The translations under genes and the position numbers were made by a program. Below the pieces are notes generated by a model. That model worked only from the letters and a program-made list of their open reading frames with translations, made no database searches and had not been told where the DNA came from. Shown piece after piece: positions 39,590 to 53,059 of a stretch of 64,000 bases of DNA. Each line of letters opens with the position of its first letter. Position 1 is the stretch's first letter. The stretch is from Promethearchaeota archaeon (GTDB lineage: Archaea > Asgardarchaeota > Lokiarchaeia > Sigyniarchaeales > SOKP01), in the NCBI GenBank assembly GCA_019057865.1, contig JAHLWP010000008.1, forward strand, positions 32,001 to 96,000, written 5' to 3'.

Positions 39590-40399
39590 TTATATGGCAA
39601 TATATATTTTACCAGTTGATTCCTTAGTTACCGAATGATCTCCACTATACTCAATAAACTTACCTGTAATTTTTTCTCCATTCGGTAATTCAATTTCTTT
39701 CACTTCACCTACTTTTTTAAAGGAGGGAAGTCTTCTTGAAACTTTACCTTTAATAACAATAATACCTCGCGCTTGATCGGCACCAGCACACCTATCGCAA
39801 TCTCCTTCTACAACAATAGTACCACCATGGTTATGAATCCCAAGAAGTGCTCCTGCACTTCCACAATATAATGTTGGCCATCTATTGTTTGGTTTTGAAC
39901 TTCTTGCCCAAAGCATGGATTCATTTCCGACTTTACCTTTTACCTTTATTACTCCATTTTTCATACCCTGCCAATTGCCTCTATACGCTGCTCCGACATA
40001 ATGACCTGCATCTCCCATTATTTCTAATTCGCCACCTTGGAGCATGGCACCTGCCCAATCATCAGCATTTCCATTCACTAAAATTTTTCCCCCAAACATA
40101 TTATTTCCCACATGCATTCCAACATTACCATTTATAATTATCTCACCACCACTCATTTGCTCTCCAATTCTTTTCACGTTTGATAGATCTCCATCAATAA
40201 TTATTGTAGTATCATTAACATTACCTGATTTTCCAGAAACACTAAAATAATCTCCTATTACAATATTTTCATTTCCATGGTATAATGGCAACTTTTTAAT
40301 TCCATCAAGAGTTTTTCCAGCAAAATTATCTGGTGTTATACTTTCTGCTTCTAAAGGGAATTTAGGCTGCTTTTTTAATTTCAACTTTATCTCTGCCAT
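39590..40399 (-). CDS. fwdC: Formylmethanofuran dehydrogenase subunit C
   Basis: LEAESITPD, GXGXG beta-helix repeats, GAAYRG..GM. Confidence 0.92.
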   Translation of the reverse strand: MAEIKLKLKKQPKFPLEAESITPDNFAGKTLDGIKKLPLYHGNENIVIGDYFSVSGKSGNVNDTTIIIDGDLSNVKRIGEQMSGGEIIINGNVGMHVGNNMFGGKILVNGNADDWAGAMLQGGELEIMGDAGHYVGAAYRGNWQGMKNGVIKVKGKVGNESMLWARSSKPNNRWPTLYCGSAGALLGIHNHGGTIVVEGDCDRCAGADQARGIIVIKGKVSRRLPSFKKVGEVKEIELPNGEKITGKFIEYSGDHSVTKESTGKIYIAI

Positions 40400-40402
40400 T
40401 AC

Positions 40403-41731
40403 TTACTCTCCCATTTTTTCCTTTATTTTTTCAATTAATTTTTCCAATATTTCTTTATCAGATAAGCAATCTTCAGGAGCATCTTTCACTTTTCTTAGTC
40501 TTATAGGAACATTATCCATGCGGTAAGCAGTTCCTTCACATTCAATTCCTGCAATTGCTGCTGGGAAATTAATGTCAGCATTCACAGAAGTTGGTGTTTC
40601 GTGGGGTTCAATAGAAATTAAAGGATGTTTAAATAAATTTTTAACGGAAGCCGCTGGAAAATTACTCGCAGGATCAGATGCTACTATTAAGGATGCATCA
40701 ATTTCATCTTTCATTAAAAGATCTACTGCTGAAAATTCTCCGGGATTATATCGGGGATATCCTTTTGAGAAATCAATAGAATAAGCATAACCAGTATTCC
40801 AAGCAAAAACGGTATTAGCTCCAGTTACATTATAATGACCTCGCATAGGCATTAGTAGAAATTTAGTATGATCGTTAAGTTCTCTAACTAAGGAAATGGC
40901 AGCATCTATGTTTCTATGGTGAGCTAATGAATGAGTTAACCCCATACCAAAAAATATAACTCCAAAGTTACATGTCTTTAAAATTTTAACTAATTCTTTG
41001 ATCTTTTCCATTGGAACACCTGAAATTTCCTTTTCATCTAATTCTACTCCTCTTAACATTGCTCTAATAGCATTTATTAATTCATAATCTTCGTTAGGCT
41101 TTATCTGAACATAGAGATCTGCTATTTGGGCAGTGTGAGTGTTTCTGGGATCAACAACGACAATATATCTGTCATATCTGCCATCTTTTCTAAAATATCC
41201 TCTTACAAACTCACTATACCTCCCAAGATGCCTTGGATGAGCATGAACTGGATTGGATCCCCAAAAGATCACAAGATCTGCCCTATTTTTAAAATCACCC
41301 AAAGTTGCCATAGGAGCTCCCACATCTTGGATTGCCAATAAACTAGGACCATGACAAACTGAAGCCGTGTTATCTAAAATTCCACCTAACAACTCTGCTA
41401 ACTCAACACCTTTACTTTGAGCTTCGCATTCTGTACTAGAAAAACCATAAAGTAAGGATCTTTTGGTATTAATTAAAATTTCTGCGGCTTTATCAAATGC
41501 TTCATCCCAAGATACTTCTTTAAATGATTTATTGTCTCTGATCCGAGGTTTGGTGTATCTATGTCCGCTTGGATTTGATGAAAAGAATTTTTTTGTGCCA
41601 ATTTGACAACCATTCCTTACTTCCACAATCGTTTCTTCTTTAATATCTACATCAACTTCTAAATCATCGCATAAAGTTCCGCAAAAGGGACAGACAACAT
41701 CTAAAACAGTCCTTAATTTCCTTTCCACCAT
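40403..41731 (-). CDS. fwdB: Formylmethanofuran dehydrogenase subunit B (Cys ligand)
   Basis: CPFCGTLCDD, SVCHGPS, WGSNPVHAHPRH, MRGHYNV, GTAYRMD. Confidence 0.95.
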   Translation of the reverse strand: MVERKLRTVLDVVCPFCGTLCDDLEVDVDIKEETIVEVRNGCQIGTKKFFSSNPSGHRYTKPRIRDNKSFKEVSWDEAFDKAAEILINTKRSLLYGFSSTECEAQSKGVELAELLGGILDNTASVCHGPSLLAIQDVGAPMATLGDFKNRADLVIFWGSNPVHAHPRHLGRYSEFVRGYFRKDGRYDRYIVVVDPRNTHTAQIADLYVQIKPNEDYELINAIRAMLRGVELDEKEISGVPMEKIKELVKILKTCNFGVIFFGMGLTHSLAHHRNIDAAISLVRELNDHTKFLLMPMRGHYNVTGANTVFAWNTGYAYSIDFSKGYPRYNPGEFSAVDLLMKDEIDASLIVASDPASNFPAASVKNLFKHPLISIEPHETPTSVNADINFPAAIAGIECEGTAYRMDNVPIRLRKVKDAPEDCLSDKEILEKLIEKIKEKMGE

Positions 41732-41733
41732 TA

Positions 41734-42129
41734 TTATGCCACCCTTAACGTTTTTATTAAATCAAGAGCATCTAAAACATTACCATTTCTAACTACTTCT
41801 ACTTTTGCTTTCATCCCTTTATAAGTTGGCGTACCACATGATTGAGTATCGGGATTTACAACTTGGTTTGCCCAAGGTCCCAGAGGCATAAATATTATAC
41901 CCTGATGGGGACCTTCTTCAGAAATAGTAGAATAAGCCATTACTTCTCCAAAATCAGTAATAACTTTAACAGGAGTTCCTACAAGACAGTCTAATTTCTT
42001 AAAGTCTTCTTTATCAAATGTACAAATAGCAGCTGCTCTTACATTTTCTTTAGTTGTTTTACCACCTTCGAGAGCAACTCCTTGATTAATTGTCCTTCCA
42101 GTTAATAAAATCAAATTGTTTAAACTCAT
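41734..42129 (-). CDS. fwdD: Formylmethanofuran dehydrogenase subunit D
   Basis: LLTGRTINQG, FMPLGPWAN, GTPTYKG. Confidence 0.9.
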   Translation of the reverse strand: MSLNNLILLTGRTINQGVALEGGKTTKENVRAAAICTFDKEDFKKLDCLVGTPVKVITDFGEVMAYSTISEEGPHQGIIFMPLGPWANQVVNPDTQSCGTPTYKGMKAKVEVVRNGNVLDALDLIKTLRVA

Positions 42130-42851
42130 TCTTCTTGTTCCTCTTTTTCACTCCATCTTAAAGTCTTTAATCTTTCTAATAAAGGTTCCCAAAACATCTC
42201 AACAAATTCACCAGATGTCTTAACATCTGTAATTTCTAACTTAATTGCTCCTGTCGGACAACCATTATCGCAGGAACCGCAGAAAATGCATTTCTCTTCG
42301 TCTACAACTACATTTGGGACTGTTTCCCACCCTTTATCAGACTTTTCTGGGACTGTAATTGCTCCAGACGGACATACTTCGTAGCAGGTTTGACATCCAC
42401 CAGGGCATTCTTCATCAACAATACTTATTTTACCATCGGTATATTGTTTAGCAACCCTTTCAATTCCATCATAGCTAGTAATCTTCTTAGCTTCAAATTC
42501 CAGTTTGGGGACAACATGCTCTTTTACAATTTGGATATCATCTAATTCAATTACTTCCCCGTCCTTTTTCAGCGTTAGAGCACTAAATGGACACATGTAC
42601 ACACAAGTTCCGCAGAAGACGCAAGCTTCTGGGTCATAAACTTCAGGGATTATATCTTCTAAAGTCGGAAATCGACGGGATGTTCCAACTGGACCGCGAG
42701 AAATAGCATCCTTAGGACAAACTCTAGCACAGGTTCCGCAACCTATGCATTTGCTTTTGTCTAATATTAATTCTAAACTTTCAGTTAAAAACTGAACCTT
42801 TACATGTTCTGTCTCTTTACTAATCGATCTTGATATTTTTGGAAATGAAAT
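42126..42851 (-). CDS. FwdF/G-like polyferredoxin (four 4Fe-4S motifs), probable ATT start
   Basis: Frame is open upstream of the listed GTG (42602) to a TAG at 42857-42855 and adds CIGCGTCARVCP and CVFCGTCVYMCP; ATT at 42851 lies 6 nt after GAGGTG. Confidence 0.8.
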   Translation of the reverse strand: MSFPKISRSISKETEHVKVQFLTESLELILDKSKCIGCGTCARVCPKDAISRGPVGTSRRFPTLEDIIPEVYDPEACVFCGTCVYMCPFSALTLKKDGEVIELDDIQIVKEHVVPKLEFEAKKITSYDGIERVAKQYTDGKISIVDEECPGGCQTCYEVCPSGAITVPEKSDKGWETVPNVVVDEEKCIFCGSCDNGCPTGAIKLEITDVKTSGEFVEMFWEPLLERLKTLRWSEKEEQEE

Positions 42852-44090: not shown

Positions 44091-45746
44091 ATGAAAAATA
44101 ATGTATTTACTTTTATTGTTGGTGGAAAAGCTGGAGAAGGTGTAAAGAAAGCAGGATCAGTAACGGCACATATTTTTTCAAGTATGGGAAGATATGTTTT
44201 TCAAATGGATGACTATATGAGCTTAATAAGAGGAGGTCATAATTTCTCAGTTGTTAGTACTTCTCAAAGATGGATCAGCAGTCATTATATGAAAGCAAAT
44301 TTGATAGTAAATTTTGATAAAAGAAGCTGTGAAACTCATATTAATGATGTTGATGAGGAAGGGATTATTATTTTTAATTCAGATGAACAAGAGGATGTAG
44401 AAGGGATTGGAGTTCCATTAAGCTCGATAGCTAAAAAATATCCCCTTAAAAGCTTAATGTATGGAGTTGGGGCTGTAGCGGTTTTATCTTCTGTTATAGG
44501 TTTTAAAAAAGAAGAAATGAATCAAATCATAAAAACTGAGTATCCAAGAGGTATTGATAATAATATTTCTTTTGCAAGTGAGATATATGATATTGTAAAT
44601 CCTAAATGTGGAAGTAAGTTTCCTTTAGAAAGAGGAGACTATAAGAGACCAATCATAACAGGCAATGAAGCAATAAGTTTTGGTGCGATCGCTAGTGGAT
44701 TAGATACTTATTATGGATATCCAATGACTCCAGCTTCATCAATTTTACATTTTTTAGCTAAGCAAGCCGAAAATTTTGGTTTAGCAGTTGTTCATGCTGA
44801 AAGTGAAATTGCTGTGATAAATATGGCTATTGGTTCTGCATTCACAGGGACAAAATCTATGGTTGGTACAAGTGGAGGAGGCTTTGCACTTATGACAGAG
44901 GGCTTTTCTTTAGCAGGTATGACAGAAACTCCCTTATTAGTGATATTATCCCAGAGACCCGGACCTGCCACTGGTGTACCTACTTATACAGAGCAAGCAG
45001 ATCTAACATCTTCTCTTTCAGCTGGTCATGGAGATTTCCTGCGAATTGTAGCATCTCCTGGAACCATAGAAGAAGCCTATTATTTAACAGCGGAAATGAT
45101 GGACATTGTGTGGAAATTTCAAACACCAGGAATCCTACTTACTGAAAAACATTTATCAGAAAGTAGTATAACAGTTGATATTGAGATTGAAAAGGCTAAG
45201 TGGGCTGAACCTAAGATGCATCAAGGTGAAAATTATAAGAGATATCTTGATACGAAGGATGGTATTTCTCCTATGTTATTTCCTCCATCGAAAGAAATCA
45301 TAAAATGGAATAGTTACGAACATGATGAGTTTGGAATTACAACTGAAGATGCTAATCTGATAGAAAAGATGCATGATAAAAGAAATAAAAAAAATAGAGT
45401 AATTCAAGACTATCTGATGAACTTAAATACTGTTAATGTTTATGGAAATGGGGAACCGATAATTTTTTCCTACGGGTCTACTACCATGAGTGTATTAGAA
45501 GCACTTAAATACGGTAATATTGAAGCAACAGTAGTTCAACCTATATATTTAAATCCCATACCTATCTGGAATCTTGAAAGTTATAGAGATAAAGAGAATT
45601 TAGTCGTGGAAATGAGCTCAACAGGTCAATTTGCAACTTTACTTAAAGAAAAAATAGGGATCTCTCCTAAAGCAGAGTTAAGGCAATATAATGGAAGGCC
45701 TTTTGATCCTATTGACTTATCTAATAAAATAAAAGAGGTGTTTTAA
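44091..45746 (+). CDS. korA: 2-oxoacid:ferredoxin oxidoreductase alpha subunit (gamma-alpha fusion)
   Basis: GGKAGEG, IRGGHN, GYPMTPAS, ESEIA, TSGGG, QRPGPATG. Confidence 0.9.
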   Translation: MKNNVFTFIVGGKAGEGVKKAGSVTAHIFSSMGRYVFQMDDYMSLIRGGHNFSVVSTSQRWISSHYMKANLIVNFDKRSCETHINDVDEEGIIIFNSDEQEDVEGIGVPLSSIAKKYPLKSLMYGVGAVAVLSSVIGFKKEEMNQIIKTEYPRGIDNNISFASEIYDIVNPKCGSKFPLERGDYKRPIITGNEAISFGAIASGLDTYYGYPMTPASSILHFLAKQAENFGLAVVHAESEIAVINMAIGSAFTGTKSMVGTSGGGFALMTEGFSLAGMTETPLLVILSQRPGPATGVPTYTEQADLTSSLSAGHGDFLRIVASPGTIEEAYYLTAEMMDIVWKFQTPGILLTEKHLSESSITVDIEIEKAKWAEPKMHQGENYKRYLDTKDGISPMLFPPSKEIIKWNSYEHDEFGITTEDANLIEKMHDKRNKKNRVIQDYLMNLNTVNVYGNGEPIIFSYGSTTMSVLEALKYGNIEATVVQPIYLNPIPIWNLESYRDKENLVVEMSSTGQFATLLKEKIGISPKAELRQYNGRPFDPIDLSNKIKEVF

Positions 45747-45750
45747 TAAA

Positions 45751-46590
45751 TTGGAAGATCTTAAAACTAGTGCCGAAATTACTTGGTGTCCAGGATGTGG
45801 TAATTTTGGAATCTTTACTGCCATTCGTAATGCAATTCCAATATTAGAAAAAAATGGAATTTCGAGAGAAAAGATTGTAATGACAGCGGGTATTGGATGT
45901 CATGCTAAAATATTTGATTACTTGAATTTAAGTGGCTTTTATGGACTACATGGAAGGAATACTTCAAACTCAGAAGGTATAAAGATTGCAAATCCTGATT
46001 TAAACATAATTAATTTTTCTGGAGATGCAAATGGATTAGCAGAAGGATTAGCACATACAATGTTCGCAGCAAAAAGAAATCAAGATATGACATATATTTT
46101 ACATAATAATAGTGTATATGCTCTAACAACAGGGCAATTCTCTCCATTAGCAGAAAAAGGTTGGAAAGGGCCCTCTACTCCCAGAGGAAGCTATGAAGAA
46201 CCATTTAATCCAATGTCTTTAATGATTGAGGCAGGTGCTACTTTTGTTGCAAGAGGTTTCTCTGGAGACATAAAGCATCTCACAGATATTATAGTACAAG
46301 GAGTTGAGCATGAAGGTTTCTCTTTCATAGAAGTATTACAACCTGCTGTCCCATACCATAAATGGAGAGAATATCGAGATCGTGTTGAGTATCTTGAAAA
46401 AGAACCAAAAACTTATTTTGAAGCTATTAAAACTGCCAAAGAAAAACATAAGTTTACTTTAGGAATGTTTTATAGAACTCAACGATCTGTTTATCACAAA
46501 GAATTGTACGGTGATCATAATCCCATAACTCAGAGAATAACTCGAGAAGAGAGATTGAAAAAAATTAGAGCTATACTTTTTCTTAAATAA
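45751..46590 (+). CDS. korB: 2-oxoacid:ferredoxin oxidoreductase beta subunit
   Basis: WCPGCGNF, GIGC, LHGR, SGD TPP motif, YALTTGQFSP. Confidence 0.9.
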   Translation: MEDLKTSAEITWCPGCGNFGIFTAIRNAIPILEKNGISREKIVMTAGIGCHAKIFDYLNLSGFYGLHGRNTSNSEGIKIANPDLNIINFSGDANGLAEGLAHTMFAAKRNQDMTYILHNNSVYALTTGQFSPLAEKGWKGPSTPRGSYEEPFNPMSLMIEAGATFVARGFSGDIKHLTDIIVQGVEHEGFSFIEVLQPAVPYHKWREYRDRVEYLEKEPKTYFEAIKTAKEKHKFTLGMFYRTQRSVYHKELYGDHNPITQRITREERLKKIRAILFLK

Positions 46591-50262: not shown

Positions 50263-51549
50263 ATGAAAGAATTGAGAAAAAAACTAAAAATCACAAAAAA
50301 AGCGTTAGATACAGTAAATAAATTTCTTGTTGATGAGGATAACATTTTAATTAATAATTTAATTGATATAATCGAAAAGTATGGTGGCGTTGATGACATC
50401 AATAAGAAAGCTAAAGAAGCAAGTGAATTAGATAATCTACTAAGTAAACTAAAAAATAAGAAGCCTGATTATGCGCAGGATATAGAATGGTTAATTGAAC
50501 AAAGAGATAATAACGCTTTTATTAGCATACCTGAATATAGAAAGAAAATCCTTGGAGAAAAATTTTCAGAAATGAGCTTTAATAAGGATTATGCTGTTAC
50601 ATTAGAACTTTCAGCTTGCCAATATTTTCCATTTTTTATGGATATAACAAGAGCAGCTATTGAAGATCAGAATTTAATGCCAGGTAGAATAATTCGTGTA
50701 AGAAAAATGAAAGAACAAGAAGAAGATGGTGATCTATTAGCAATGGCGGCTGCCATGCAAATTATTGGCGCAACTTATGTAGAAACATTAGATACCAAGG
50801 GAACTGCTCCTGGTCCTGATGGATTACCAGTAAATGTACATCTTGGTGGACCCGAAACCATAACAGGTTATTTTGGAGGAGTGGGGCAACCTAATGATTT
50901 TGCATTAAAGTGGGTTGATGAATATCTTTATTATTATACTAATTATGGTATCAAGCAAGTTCTAAATATTAATCCTGGAACGGTTTTACTAGGATATTAT
51001 ATTCATAAATTAGGGATTAATAACGAATTTAAAATATCAGTATATATGGGAAATGATAATCCATACGCTTGCCTGTGGACTCTTTTAACAGCTAAATTAT
51101 TCGCCAGAGAAGATGGAACAAGCCCGTTGATTGGTTTTAATCTTGCTAACTCAGTAAATAATGAAACAATTGAACTCACTGCTCATATTAGAAAAGCATT
51201 TGATTTTGAAGATGTTATCAGATTTGAACATCATGTGATTGAAACACAGAAAAGTATTGTACGCCAACCATATGATCGAAGAGAAGATTTATTGGAAGTT
51301 GCTATGAAAGTGAAAAATATCAGTGCTAAACATGAAGGTGGTGATGTAGAAATAGATAAGAATAGAGAACATCCTTCAGATATTTTAGATTATTTTAGGG
51401 ATAAGCAAGAGATTATTGATTCAGGTCATTGGGAATTTATGCGTAGAAATCACCTTGATAGATATATTGCTATTAATACTACAGCAAAAGTATTAACTGA
51501 AAACGGTATTGATATTATTGCTGCCCAAAATCTTCATCAAGTTGATTAA
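50263..51549 (+). CDS. Conserved hypothetical protein, co-transcribed with DapA-Fae
   Basis: 428-aa enzyme-like ORF (ETLDTKG, VHLGGPETITGYFGG, EHH, KHEGG, HPSDILDY); 22-bp gap to next gene. Confidence 0.75.
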   Translation: MKELRKKLKITKKALDTVNKFLVDEDNILINNLIDIIEKYGGVDDINKKAKEASELDNLLSKLKNKKPDYAQDIEWLIEQRDNNAFISIPEYRKKILGEKFSEMSFNKDYAVTLELSACQYFPFFMDITRAAIEDQNLMPGRIIRVRKMKEQEEDGDLLAMAAAMQIIGATYVETLDTKGTAPGPDGLPVNVHLGGPETITGYFGGVGQPNDFALKWVDEYLYYYTNYGIKQVLNINPGTVLLGYYIHKLGINNEFKISVYMGNDNPYACLWTLLTAKLFAREDGTSPLIGFNLANSVNNETIELTAHIRKAFDFEDVIRFEHHVIETQKSIVRQPYDRREDLLEVAMKVKNISAKHEGGDVEIDKNREHPSDILDYFRDKQEIIDSGHWEFMRRNHLDRYIAINTTAKVLTENGIDIIAAQNLHQVD

Positions 51550-51571
51550 ATAATAGAGGTTTAAAGAAAAG

Positions 51572-53059
51572 ATGAGTAAGTTTGATTTTAGACCCACTGG
51601 AGTCATGGTAGCACTTGTAACGCCATTTAATAAAGATGAATCGATAAATGAAGACCAATTAAGGAATTTAGTTAATCATCTGATTGAACAAGGGGTTACA
51701 GGATTAGTCCCTGTCGGTACTACTGGAGAGTTTGTAAATATGACTTTTGAGGAACGTATAAAAGTAATTGAAATTGTAGTGGATGAAACAAATGGTAGAG
51801 TTCCGGTAATAGCAGGAACAGGAGAGACAGGAACCAAATTAGTGATTGATGCTACAAAAGCCGCAACTGATATAGGTGCAGATGCAGTTTTAATAGTCAC
51901 ACCTTATTATTTAAAACCGAAAGCAAAGGGATTATATGATCATTACTACACTATTACTGAAAAAACAGATATACCTATAGTACTCTATAATATCCCTGCT
52001 TGTACGGGTGTAGAATTACCTTGGACTGTTGTAGAAGATCTCGTAGATATCGAAAATATTGTTGCTATTAAAGATTCTAGTGGTGATTATAAATATTTTT
52101 CAGCATTATTGGAAAAAGTAAGTGATAAGATTTCAGTACTTATTGGATGGGATGAAAATGTTTTAGGAGCTTTAGCTGGAGGTGCTGCTGGCTGTATCTT
52201 AGGTTCTGCAAATGTTTTCCCTAAAATTTGGCTCGAAATTTATAATCATGTAAAAAATAATCGTCTAGAAGAAGCTCAAACACTTCAAAAGAAGGTCCAA
52301 AAAATAGCAAGACTTTTAATAAACTCAGGAGCATTAGGAGTTAAATCTTGCTTGAATATGATGAAAGTACCGGTTGGAAAAACTAGGCAACCAATTGTTT
52401 TAGGAGATGCTCTTTCTTATGAAATAAAAGATGAATTAAGAGTTGAGCTTGAGAAATTAGGATTGATTGAAAAAACAGAAGTCCAATTTGAATTTGGAGA
52501 AAAACCACTAATAAGTCGTTTCTATGCTGTTGGAATTACACCTAAGAAAATCACAGATTTTAAGTTAAAAGTAGGGGAATCATTAGTAGGAAATCGTGTT
52601 GAGCTTGCACATATTGATCTTCTAATTGGTGAAAAAGGTGGACCTGTTGGTAATGCTTATGCTCAAGCTTTAACTAATCCAGAAGAAGGACGTGAAGGTC
52701 TTCAAGTTATACTTGAGCCTAATATGCAAGTAAAACCACCAACAATTATGATCCCTACAGTTCGTCCAACTTCCCTTCGTCATGCTAGTCTAACTTATGG
52801 ACCTGCACAAGCTGCAATAGCCAAAGCTGTAATGCAATGTGTTATAGATGGAATTCTCCCGAAAGAATTAACAGATGATATTCTAATAATCGTGAATGTT
52901 TTTGTCCATCCAAGTGCTAGTGCAAGAAAGAGAATCTTTATCAACAACTATAAAGCAACTCGTAATGCAATTCGAAAAGCAATGGAAGGCTTACCAACGG
53001 TTGATGATGGGATAGAAAATGCTGAAAATGCACGCCATCCTTTTCGTAACGATCCTTAA
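51572..53059 (+). CDS. DapA/NAL-family class I aldolase fused to formaldehyde-activating enzyme (Fae)
   Basis: aa 1-300: GTTGE, YNIP, IKDSSGD; aa ~331-495: VGESLVG..ELAHIDLLIG, KPPT, GPAQAAIAKAV, VFVHP, NYKAT, HPF. Confidence 0.9.
   Translation: MSKFDFRPTGVMVALVTPFNKDESINEDQLRNLVNHLIEQGVTGLVPVGTTGEFVNMTFEERIKVIEIVVDETNGRVPVIAGTGETGTKLVIDATKAATDIGADAVLIVTPYYLKPKAKGLYDHYYTITEKTDIPIVLYNIPACTGVELPWTVVEDLVDIENIVAIKDSSGDYKYFSALLEKVSDKISVLIGWDENVLGALAGGAAGCILGSANVFPKIWLEIYNHVKNNRLEEAQTLQKKVQKIARLLINSGALGVKSCLNMMKVPVGKTRQPIVLGDALSYEIKDELRVELEKLGLIEKTEVQFEFGEKPLISRFYAVGITPKKITDFKLKVGESLVGNRVELAHIDLLIGEKGGPVGNAYAQALTNPEEGREGLQVILEPNMQVKPPTIMIPTVRPTSLRHASLTYGPAQAAIAKAVMQCVIDGILPKELTDDILIIVNVFVHPSASARKRIFINNYKATRNAIRKAMEGLPTVDDGIENAENARHPFRNDP

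Follow-up and report, generated by a model that had tools for sequence, protein, structure and literature searches.

A DHDPS-family aldolase fused to a formaldehyde-activating enzyme in Asgard archaea: a candidate link between tetrahydromethanopterin-bound C1 units and homoserine

The stretch of DNA analysed here, a window of 64,000 nucleotides (nt) from a Promethearchaeota archaeon (assembly GCA_019057865.1, contig JAHLWP010000008.1, positions 32,001 to 96,000 of the forward strand), carries a gene whose product joins a class I aldolase domain of the DHDPS/NAL family to a formaldehyde-activating enzyme (Fae) domain, a protein hereafter called the fusion. Immediately upstream lies a gene for a protein of 428 amino acids (aa), and because the spacer between the two is 22 nt long and holds a GAGGT motif, they can be read as one putative transcription unit (Table 1). 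Fae (EC 4.2.1.147) condenses formaldehyde with tetrahydromethanopterin (H4MPT), and the archaeal Fae-Hps proteins couple Fae to an aldolase-type formaldehyde chemistry. In this article, we consider whether the fusion ties H4MPT-bound C1 units to the metabolism of homoserine.

Both halves of the fusion match nearly the whole of their Pfam profiles, DHDPS at the N-terminus (PF00701, residues 8-293, E 7.4e-79) and Fae at the C-terminus (PF08714, residues 334-491, E 2.9e-55, 187 bits against a cut-off of 27). The NCBIfam model one_C_fae (TIGR03126) gives the Fae half 184 bits against a cut-off of 118, and the Fae-Hps model NF009833 matches residues 332-491 only, at 146 bits, below its cut-off of 274. 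The best PDB sequence matches of the aldolase half are DHDPS enzymes, and its GTTGE, PYY, Tyr139 and Lys167 all align with their counterparts in solved DHDPS structures. In the same alignment, Cys144 stands opposite the arginine of 3pud and 2yxg (LYNIPACTG against LYNVPGRTG and LYNVPSRTA, respectively) and the GDD of the solved enzymes is replaced by GWDE. The Fae half is collinear with the M. extorquens Fae 1Y5Y (residues 5-166 of 169, E 2.6e-33), including the VAHIDL block, and retains His347, Asp349 and every canonical Fae conserved block. Among 117 close homologues, GTTGE, IKDSSG and GWDE are each found in all 117, YNIPxCTG in 116 and AHIDL in 104. Judged from these residues, the active sites of the two domains are complete and conserved. 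Solved Fae entries contain five chains and those of DHDPS two or four, so that the fusion might assemble with D5 symmetry or as something larger. An earlier note on this DNA had described a complete pyruvate-aldolase barrel (GTTGE, Tyr139, Lys167), a complete Fae domain with His347 in AHIDL, a cysteine in place of Arg138 of DHDPS and fwd genes in the window; the profile and structure-sequence alignments bear out the first three, and Fwd-like subunits are indeed encoded there.

Table 1. Coordinates of the fusion, its domains and residues, and of associated genes; unlabelled coordinates are positions in the window.
Feature	Position	Strand	Remarks
Aldolase-Fae fusion gene (P0001)	51572..53059	+	single 495-aa open reading frame, no internal stop
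DHDPS/NAL-family class I aldolase domain	51593..52450	+	aa 8-293; Pfam, motif alignment, tree
Key residues of the aldolase domain			GTTGE 49-53, PYY 111-113, Tyr139, GWDE 192-195
Cys144 (position of E. coli DHDPS Arg138)	codon 52001-52003	+	within YNIPACTG
Schiff-base Lys167	codon 52070-52072	+	within IKDSSG
Inter-domain linker	52451..52570	+	aa 294-333, between both Pfam envelopes; variable in length and poorly conserved in the fusion alignment
Fae domain	52571..53044	+	aa 334-491; key: His347, Asp349 (AHIDL), GPAQAA 410-415, HPF 489-491
Fae His347	codon 52610-52612	+	
Partner gene, 5′ of the fusion	50263..51549	+	428 aa; no Pfam or NCBIfam family
Spacer between 428-aa gene and fusion	51550..51571	+	22 nt; GAGGT is Shine-Dalgarno-like, as read in the sequence
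Fwd-like genes	39590-42602	-	GXGXG (FwdC-like), molybdopterin oxidoreductase (FwdB-like), molybdopterin-binding (FwdD-like)
Two-subunit 2-oxoacid:ferredoxin oxidoreductase	44091-46590	+	POR/POR_N plus TPP C-terminal domain; 5 kb upstream of the fusion operon
315-aa partner gene	L031:7734-8681	-	
315-aa partner gene	L032:5340-6287	+	

The same note had pointed to a domain-architecture search, to a phylogeny of the aldolase half and to a look for a separate canonical dapA/dapB. Homologues were counted in 90%-identity clusters and in 50%-identity representatives, the latter searched exhaustively, and gene content was compared across 151 genomes from the phylum of the window (Asgard), grouped in families labelled f1, f3, f7 and so on. 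The two Pfam domains recur together in more than 120 of the 90%-identity clusters, at 84-97% identity to the window protein, the named members being Promethearchaeota/Lokiarchaeia and other Asgard metagenome-assembled genomes. About 13 more distant full-length fusion clusters, with 35-50% identity, occur among the 50%-identity representatives, some of them labelled Thorarchaeota, Korarchaeota/Thermoproteota or, doubtfully, Anaerolineae. The fusion is present in 70 of the 151 Asgard genomes; it is real, not an assembly artefact, and far from unique to one assembly. All public copies bear the name DapA or 4-hydroxy-tetrahydrodipicolinate synthase, since the N-terminal half scores above the cut-off of the dapA model TIGR00674, and no article describing a DHDPS-Fae protein turned up in full-text searches.

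Tandem pairs of DHDPS-Fae paralogues are also found (L006:6528-9479, L008:6715-9398, L010:6544-9449, L028:6608-9519 and L032:6303-9191). Their upstream member, here called type A, has lost the Fae histidine and the C-terminal HPF tail and kept the EPN...GPxQ block, whereas the downstream, non-Loki member, type B, has kept the histidine and the tail and shows a diverged EPN...GPxQ block. This complementary decay suggests a hetero-oligomer with composite Fae sites, of which the window protein, with all its Fae blocks, looks like the complete single-chain version.

Despite its name in the databases, the aldolase half is very probably not DapA. In a FastTree phylogeny of 149 DHDPS-family sequences (SH-like supports), built without biochemically characterised DHDPS/NAL enzymes, all fusion aldolase domains, together with a few fragments, form one clade (support 98) in which none has arginine at the Arg138 column, the position being taken by cysteine, valine or leucine. 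The DapA of the genome itself falls in a separate clade of 42 sequences, nearly all with the arginine (support 98). This canonical dapA (299 aa, with LYNVPSRTG and SGDD) adjoins dapB on another contig of the genome, which measures 4.26 Mb and is 99.7% complete. Moreover, the archaeal type of aspartate-semialdehyde dehydrogenase (asd; asd_EA) is without a match in 40 of the 70 fusion-bearing genomes, which would accordingly be without aspartate semialdehyde, the substrate of DHDPS. The changes in the predicted pocket (arginine to cysteine or valine, GDD to GWDE or GHDE) would fit an electrophile much smaller than aspartate semialdehyde. The genome holds a third member of the DHDPS family, a 694-aa protein fused to an APH-type phosphotransferase domain (L003:187-2271, minus strand, identical to G000:C75), whose DHDPS-like domain is degenerate (82 bits, with LNDS at the lysine position).

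The C1 metabolism of the genome is compatible with a role for H4MPT. It encodes a methenyl-H4MPT cyclohydrolase (Mch, PF02289, 348 bits) and, separately from the fusion, an ordinary Fae-Hps, and the Fwd-like genes of the window are consistent with an H4MPT/methanofuran C1 branch; together, these genes make H4MPT a plausible C1 carrier.

The genes that accompany the fusion offer a second line of evidence. The 428-aa protein is extremely conserved across Asgard families, and its gene adjoins the fusion in all 17 of the f1 genomes that have it, as well as in f27. In f9, f12, f13, f18 and f21, a gene for a second partner, a 315-aa protein without a Pfam family but U32-like (Atlas feature score 0.98), lies next to the fusion, either just upstream or divergently oriented; relatives of this protein apparently occur in Actinomycetota, Bacillota and Chloroflexota. 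The 428-aa and 315-aa partners, encoded in 63 and 28 genomes respectively, are mutually exclusive (overlap 0 among the 151), and one or the other accompanies the fusion in 67 of 70 genomes, usually as its neighbour. The three remaining genomes are fragmentary: in G132 and G079 a contig end cuts the fusion, and the G081 assembly reaches 88% completeness and is spread over about 190 contigs. A search for conserved neighbours of the fusion in f7, f13 and f16 brought up no recurrent gene other than the partners.

Away from the fusion, the 428-aa gene keeps company with genes of homoserine metabolism. In f5 and f22, which have no fusion, it stands first in an operon with genes for a class I aminotransferase, a homoserine dehydrogenase (hom) and an aldehyde:ferredoxin oxidoreductase (AOR), the last gene of the operon encoding a PatB-family C-S lyase in f22 and a major facilitator superfamily (MFS) transporter in f5. 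The f5 genomes with the 428-aa gene and those with hom are the identical set of eight, and across the sample the fusion or hom is present in 85 of the 91 partner-bearing genomes. In f7, the gene lies apart from the fusions and is divergent from a threonine synthase gene that scores above cut-offs, in at least 10 genomes of 8 genera. A tie to a DHDPS-like domain is seen in P0413, a Logan protein of 759 aa and the only longer fused form of the 428-aa protein found, in which a 428-like domain (56% identity) is joined to a DHDPS-like domain (GTTG, LYQLPQIT, KDSSG, no arginine) with the motif Y-x-x-P-Q-x-T, which is non-arginine, as in the fusions. As a separate observation, f5 and f22 mostly lack asd (present in 0 of 13 and 2 of 7 genomes), and AOR directly follows hom there (L023:7492-10358 and L024:6912-9759); AOR might provide an ATP-free interconversion of aspartate and aspartate semialdehyde in these families.

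The 428-aa protein itself matches no family in Pfam (E up to 10), NCBIfam or a PDB profile search, and its Atlas feature scores are 0.81 or lower. A first AlphaFold2 model (predicted local distance difference test, pLDDT, 59.5) had uninformative matches. A second (pLDDT 81, predicted template-modelling score 0.85) shows an N-terminal helical domain followed by a (beta/alpha)8 triosephosphate isomerase (TIM) barrel with invariant His, Glu, Asp and Lys residues. Its best Foldseek matches are class II fructose-bisphosphate aldolases (E about 1e-4, template-modelling score, TM, about 0.45), and its VIA list is flat, at Z 10-12, across many TIM-barrel families. The predicted fold thus suggests a metal-dependent enzyme and nothing more specific. 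Three other identities were considered. The protein is not a degenerate DHDPS-Fae paralogue of the kind that lies upstream in other lineages (hhalign probability 0.2), and the 428-aa and 315-aa partners are not homologues by BLASTP (E 1.5). The idea that it is the missing homoserine kinase is not supported, the fold not being kinase-like; ThrB or a TIGR02535 kinase is encoded in only 27 of 134 genomes with thrC, and of the remainder 75 have a partner gene, while 32 have neither kinase nor partner (for example G083 and G104).

The third line of evidence is the distribution of homoserine and threonine genes. No homoserine dehydrogenase (PF00742) was found in the genome of the window, whereas all 14 control genomes have hom. 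In the sample, 10 genomes have both the fusion and hom, 60 the fusion alone, 46 hom alone and 35 neither, which puts hom in 46 of the 81 fusion-less genomes. The pattern follows family lines: f7 has the fusion in 25 of 26 genomes and hom in 1 of 26, f12 the fusion in at least 15 of 19 and hom in none of 19, and f13, f21 and f27 the fusion without hom, while the reverse, hom and no fusion, holds for f3, f4, f8, f19, f5 and f22. In f12, f13, f21 and f27, asd is found in 0 of 26 genomes, yet the threonine synthase gene thrC is kept in 23 of 26 at E<=1e-30; with asd and hom both missing from the aspartate route to homoserine, these lineages must draw their C4 unit from something other than aspartate semialdehyde.

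These observations lead us to a reading, to which we give a probability of about 40%, in which the fusion is a bifunctional and reversible enzyme at the node of 4-hydroxy-2-oxobutanoate (HOB) and homoserine and works with the 428-aa partner. The node is suggested by the two settings of the partner, with a pyruvate aldolase coupled to formaldehyde in one and an aminotransferase and a homoserine dehydrogenase in the other; HOB, which transamination interconverts with homoserine, would be the one metabolite common to both contexts. The net chemistry taken by itself, pyruvate + 5,10-methylene-H4MPT + H2O <-> HOB + H4MPT, in which the C1 unit would move between H4MPT and the pyruvate enamine, stands somewhat better than even. 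The Fae domain would interconvert methylene-H4MPT and formaldehyde, and the class I aldolase domain, with its Schiff base at Lys167 and its relay through Tyr139, would add formaldehyde to pyruvate or cleave HOB; having both domains in one chain would keep free formaldehyde low. In the synthetic direction, HOB would be transaminated to homoserine, and in the genome of the window HOB, as product or as source, would presumably pass via the 428-aa protein. The earlier note had proposed the same link between formaldehyde or methylene-H4MPT and a pyruvate aldol reaction, with HOB as its example, and it gives the best fit to the anticorrelation with hom, to the occurrence of the fusion without asd and to the shared partner gene. 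From this comparative evidence and the architecture we infer the substrates, how the two domains are coupled, the direction and what the partner does.

Of the two directions, synthesis (C1 + C3 to C4) is modestly favoured over the cleavage of HOB, because the lineages that keep thrC in the absence of hom and asd point to a homoserine skeleton built from C1 and C3. The chemistry is feasible, since an engineered homoserine cycle in E. coli runs an HOB aldolase and then an HOB aminotransferase to yield homoserine, and HOB, which a class II aldolase forms there through its promiscuity, is described as non-native (PMC8879981). So far, the reaction has been described only in engineered pathways. More tentatively still, many Asgard archaea may build the homoserine and threonine skeleton from pyruvate and the C1 unit of methylene-H4MPT, via the fusion and either partner, rather than from aspartate.

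Several observations weigh against the reading of the fusion as an HOB aldolase. Its N-terminal half scores 251.6 bits with the dapA model TIGR00674, above the cut-off of 206.15. Ten of the 70 fusion-bearing genomes do have hom, and the anticorrelation (odds ratio 0.13, Fisher's p 5e-8) is uncorrected for relatedness and hence descriptive only. The genome of the window itself complicates the synthetic direction: beside the missing hom, neither thrB nor a homoserine kinase of the TIGR02535 type was found in it, and its only thrC-like gene (L015:1204-2622, minus strand; 471 aa, with a zinc ribbon at the N-terminus and a winged helix at the C-terminus) scores below cut-offs. For a genome that is 99.7% complete, this means that the organism is either a threonine auxotroph or the user of a non-canonical route. 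HcyBio is present, so that homocysteine is obtainable from aspartate semialdehyde and methionine can be made without any need for homoserine. The aminotransferase of the f5 and f22 operons has no close orthologue in the genome, the best match being 34% identical. Finally, in the distant archaeal lineage L010 (a contig of GCA_003560875.1), the Schiff-base lysine is gone from both paralogues of the tandem pair (which read ALADSSG and ILDATG), as is the Thr-Thr motif; the lineage seems to have given up aldolase chemistry though it retained the pair, and the fusion family can therefore hold non-aldolase members.

A serious rival, if an unlikely one, runs the same chemistry in the catabolic direction. 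HOB, produced by the 428-aa partner from some precursor or by transamination of homoserine, would be cleaved, and Fae would trap the formaldehyde as methylene-H4MPT, to be oxidised or used for acetyl-CoA synthesis. This mirrors the direction of Fae-Hps, as known Fae fusions of that kind trap the formaldehyde that their aldolase releases. The absence of the usual homoserine consumers from the genome of the window, the 2-oxoacid:ferredoxin oxidoreductase upstream of the fusion operon, the catabolic look of the AOR and MFS transporter in the alternative 428-aa operon and the patchy distribution, which suits a peripheral module, all speak for it. However, a source of HOB is not evident, and the families that retain thrC without hom and asd would be left without a source of homoserine; the strong conservation of fusion and partner across families, and neighbours such as thrC, hom and the C-S lyase, which are biosynthetic enzymes, are likewise at odds with degradation.

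Roughly on a par with it is the view that the fusion is a pyruvate or other 2-oxoacid aldolase for another aldehyde or product, with Fae as a pentameric scaffold, a pterin binder or a domain that condenses a different aldehyde, and with an indirect link to homoserine. The substrates of the fusion are, after all, deduced by comparison, the 428-aa partner is a predicted TIM barrel with a weak likeness to class II aldolases, and the family includes the type A paralogues without the Fae histidine and the L010 copies without the lysine. The window protein, by contrast, retains His347, Asp349 and all canonical Fae blocks, and the bulky tryptophan or histidine at the GDD position, together with the loss of the arginine, would fit a very small electrophile. 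To our knowledge, formaldehyde is the sole substrate of Fae.

Two further explanations are very improbable. A genuine DapA of the lysine pathway with an extra Fae domain is what the databases annotate, and the TIGR00674 score, the DHDPS enzymes among the best PDB matches and the names in all sources agree with it; yet the Arg138 equivalent is replaced throughout a clade that is separate from DapA, the genome has its canonical dapA-dapB pair, and the majority of fusion genomes lack asd. As an H4MPT-dependent 2-oxoisovalerate hydroxymethyltransferase, the fusion would be a class I counterpart of PanB that makes ketopantoate for coenzyme A; it would perform the reaction type that PanB carries out with methylene-tetrahydrofolate, and PanB is missing from both control methanogens. 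A strong canonical PanB (368 bits), however, rules out the fusion as the missing PanB of this genome, no methanogen fusion appeared among the best 150 representatives, and the genomic links of the fusion are to homoserine genes, not to pantothenate genes.

If the HOB aldolase reading is correct, the fusion would do in nature what the engineered HOB-aldolase route does by design, and the C1 (H4MPT) pool of the archaeal Wood-Ljungdahl pathway would have a new way out, directly into C4 amino acids. A gene called DapA in hundreds of Asgard genomes would be a different enzyme, and there would be an explanation for entire Asgard families in which asd and hom seem to be missing. Such assignments underlie metabolic reconstructions of these archaea, relatives of the eukaryotes, including auxotrophy calls and syntrophy models. 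It would also supply a natural, evolved catalyst for the conversion of pyruvate and a C1 unit to HOB, for which synthetic methylotrophy now relies on promiscuous side activities.

Among the closest known systems is DapA/DHDPS (EC 4.3.3.7), with which the aldolase half of the fusion shares the fold, the Schiff-base lysine (K161 in E. coli), the Thr-Thr motif, the Thr44/Tyr107/Tyr133 relay and about 40% identity, enough to exceed the TIGR00674 cut-off. The fusion differs in having Cys144 for Arg138, which binds the carboxylate of aspartate semialdehyde, and GWDE for GDD, in its separate clade, in its independence of asd and dapB and in the fused Fae domain. With PanB, it would share the net reaction type, in which C3 of a 2-oxoacid receives a hydroxymethyl group from a methylene-pterin, but PanB has an unrelated fold, a class II (Mg2+) mechanism, a folate cofactor and 2-oxoisovalerate as substrate. 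The synthetic homoserine cycle, which in E. coli employs RhmA and transaminases (PMC8879981), likewise leads from pyruvate and formaldehyde to HOB and then to homoserine; RhmA, however, is a metal-dependent, promiscuous class II enzyme fed with free formaldehyde in an engineered host, whereas the fusion is proposed to be a dedicated class I aldolase that receives its C1 unit from methylene-H4MPT via the fused Fae, in a natural genome. Fae-Hps, from which the earlier note argued by analogy, is comparable in principle, in that Fae is fused to a formaldehyde-handling aldolase and a C-C bond reaction is thereby tied to the H4MPT pool. The analogy does not extend to the aldolase family or the domain order: the other half of Fae-Hps (5,6,7,8-tetrahydromethanopterin hydro-lyase / 3-hexulose-6-phosphate synthase) is an Hps of the OMPDC family, that of the fusion a class I DHDPS/NAL pyruvate aldolase; Fae is N-terminal there and C-terminal here; and the carbon partner is ribulose 5-phosphate there, whereas pyruvate, giving a C4 keto acid, is proposed for the fusion. 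We therefore class the fusion with the known kind of Fae joined to a formaldehyde-handling aldolase, but with another aldolase family, another proposed reaction and another pathway.

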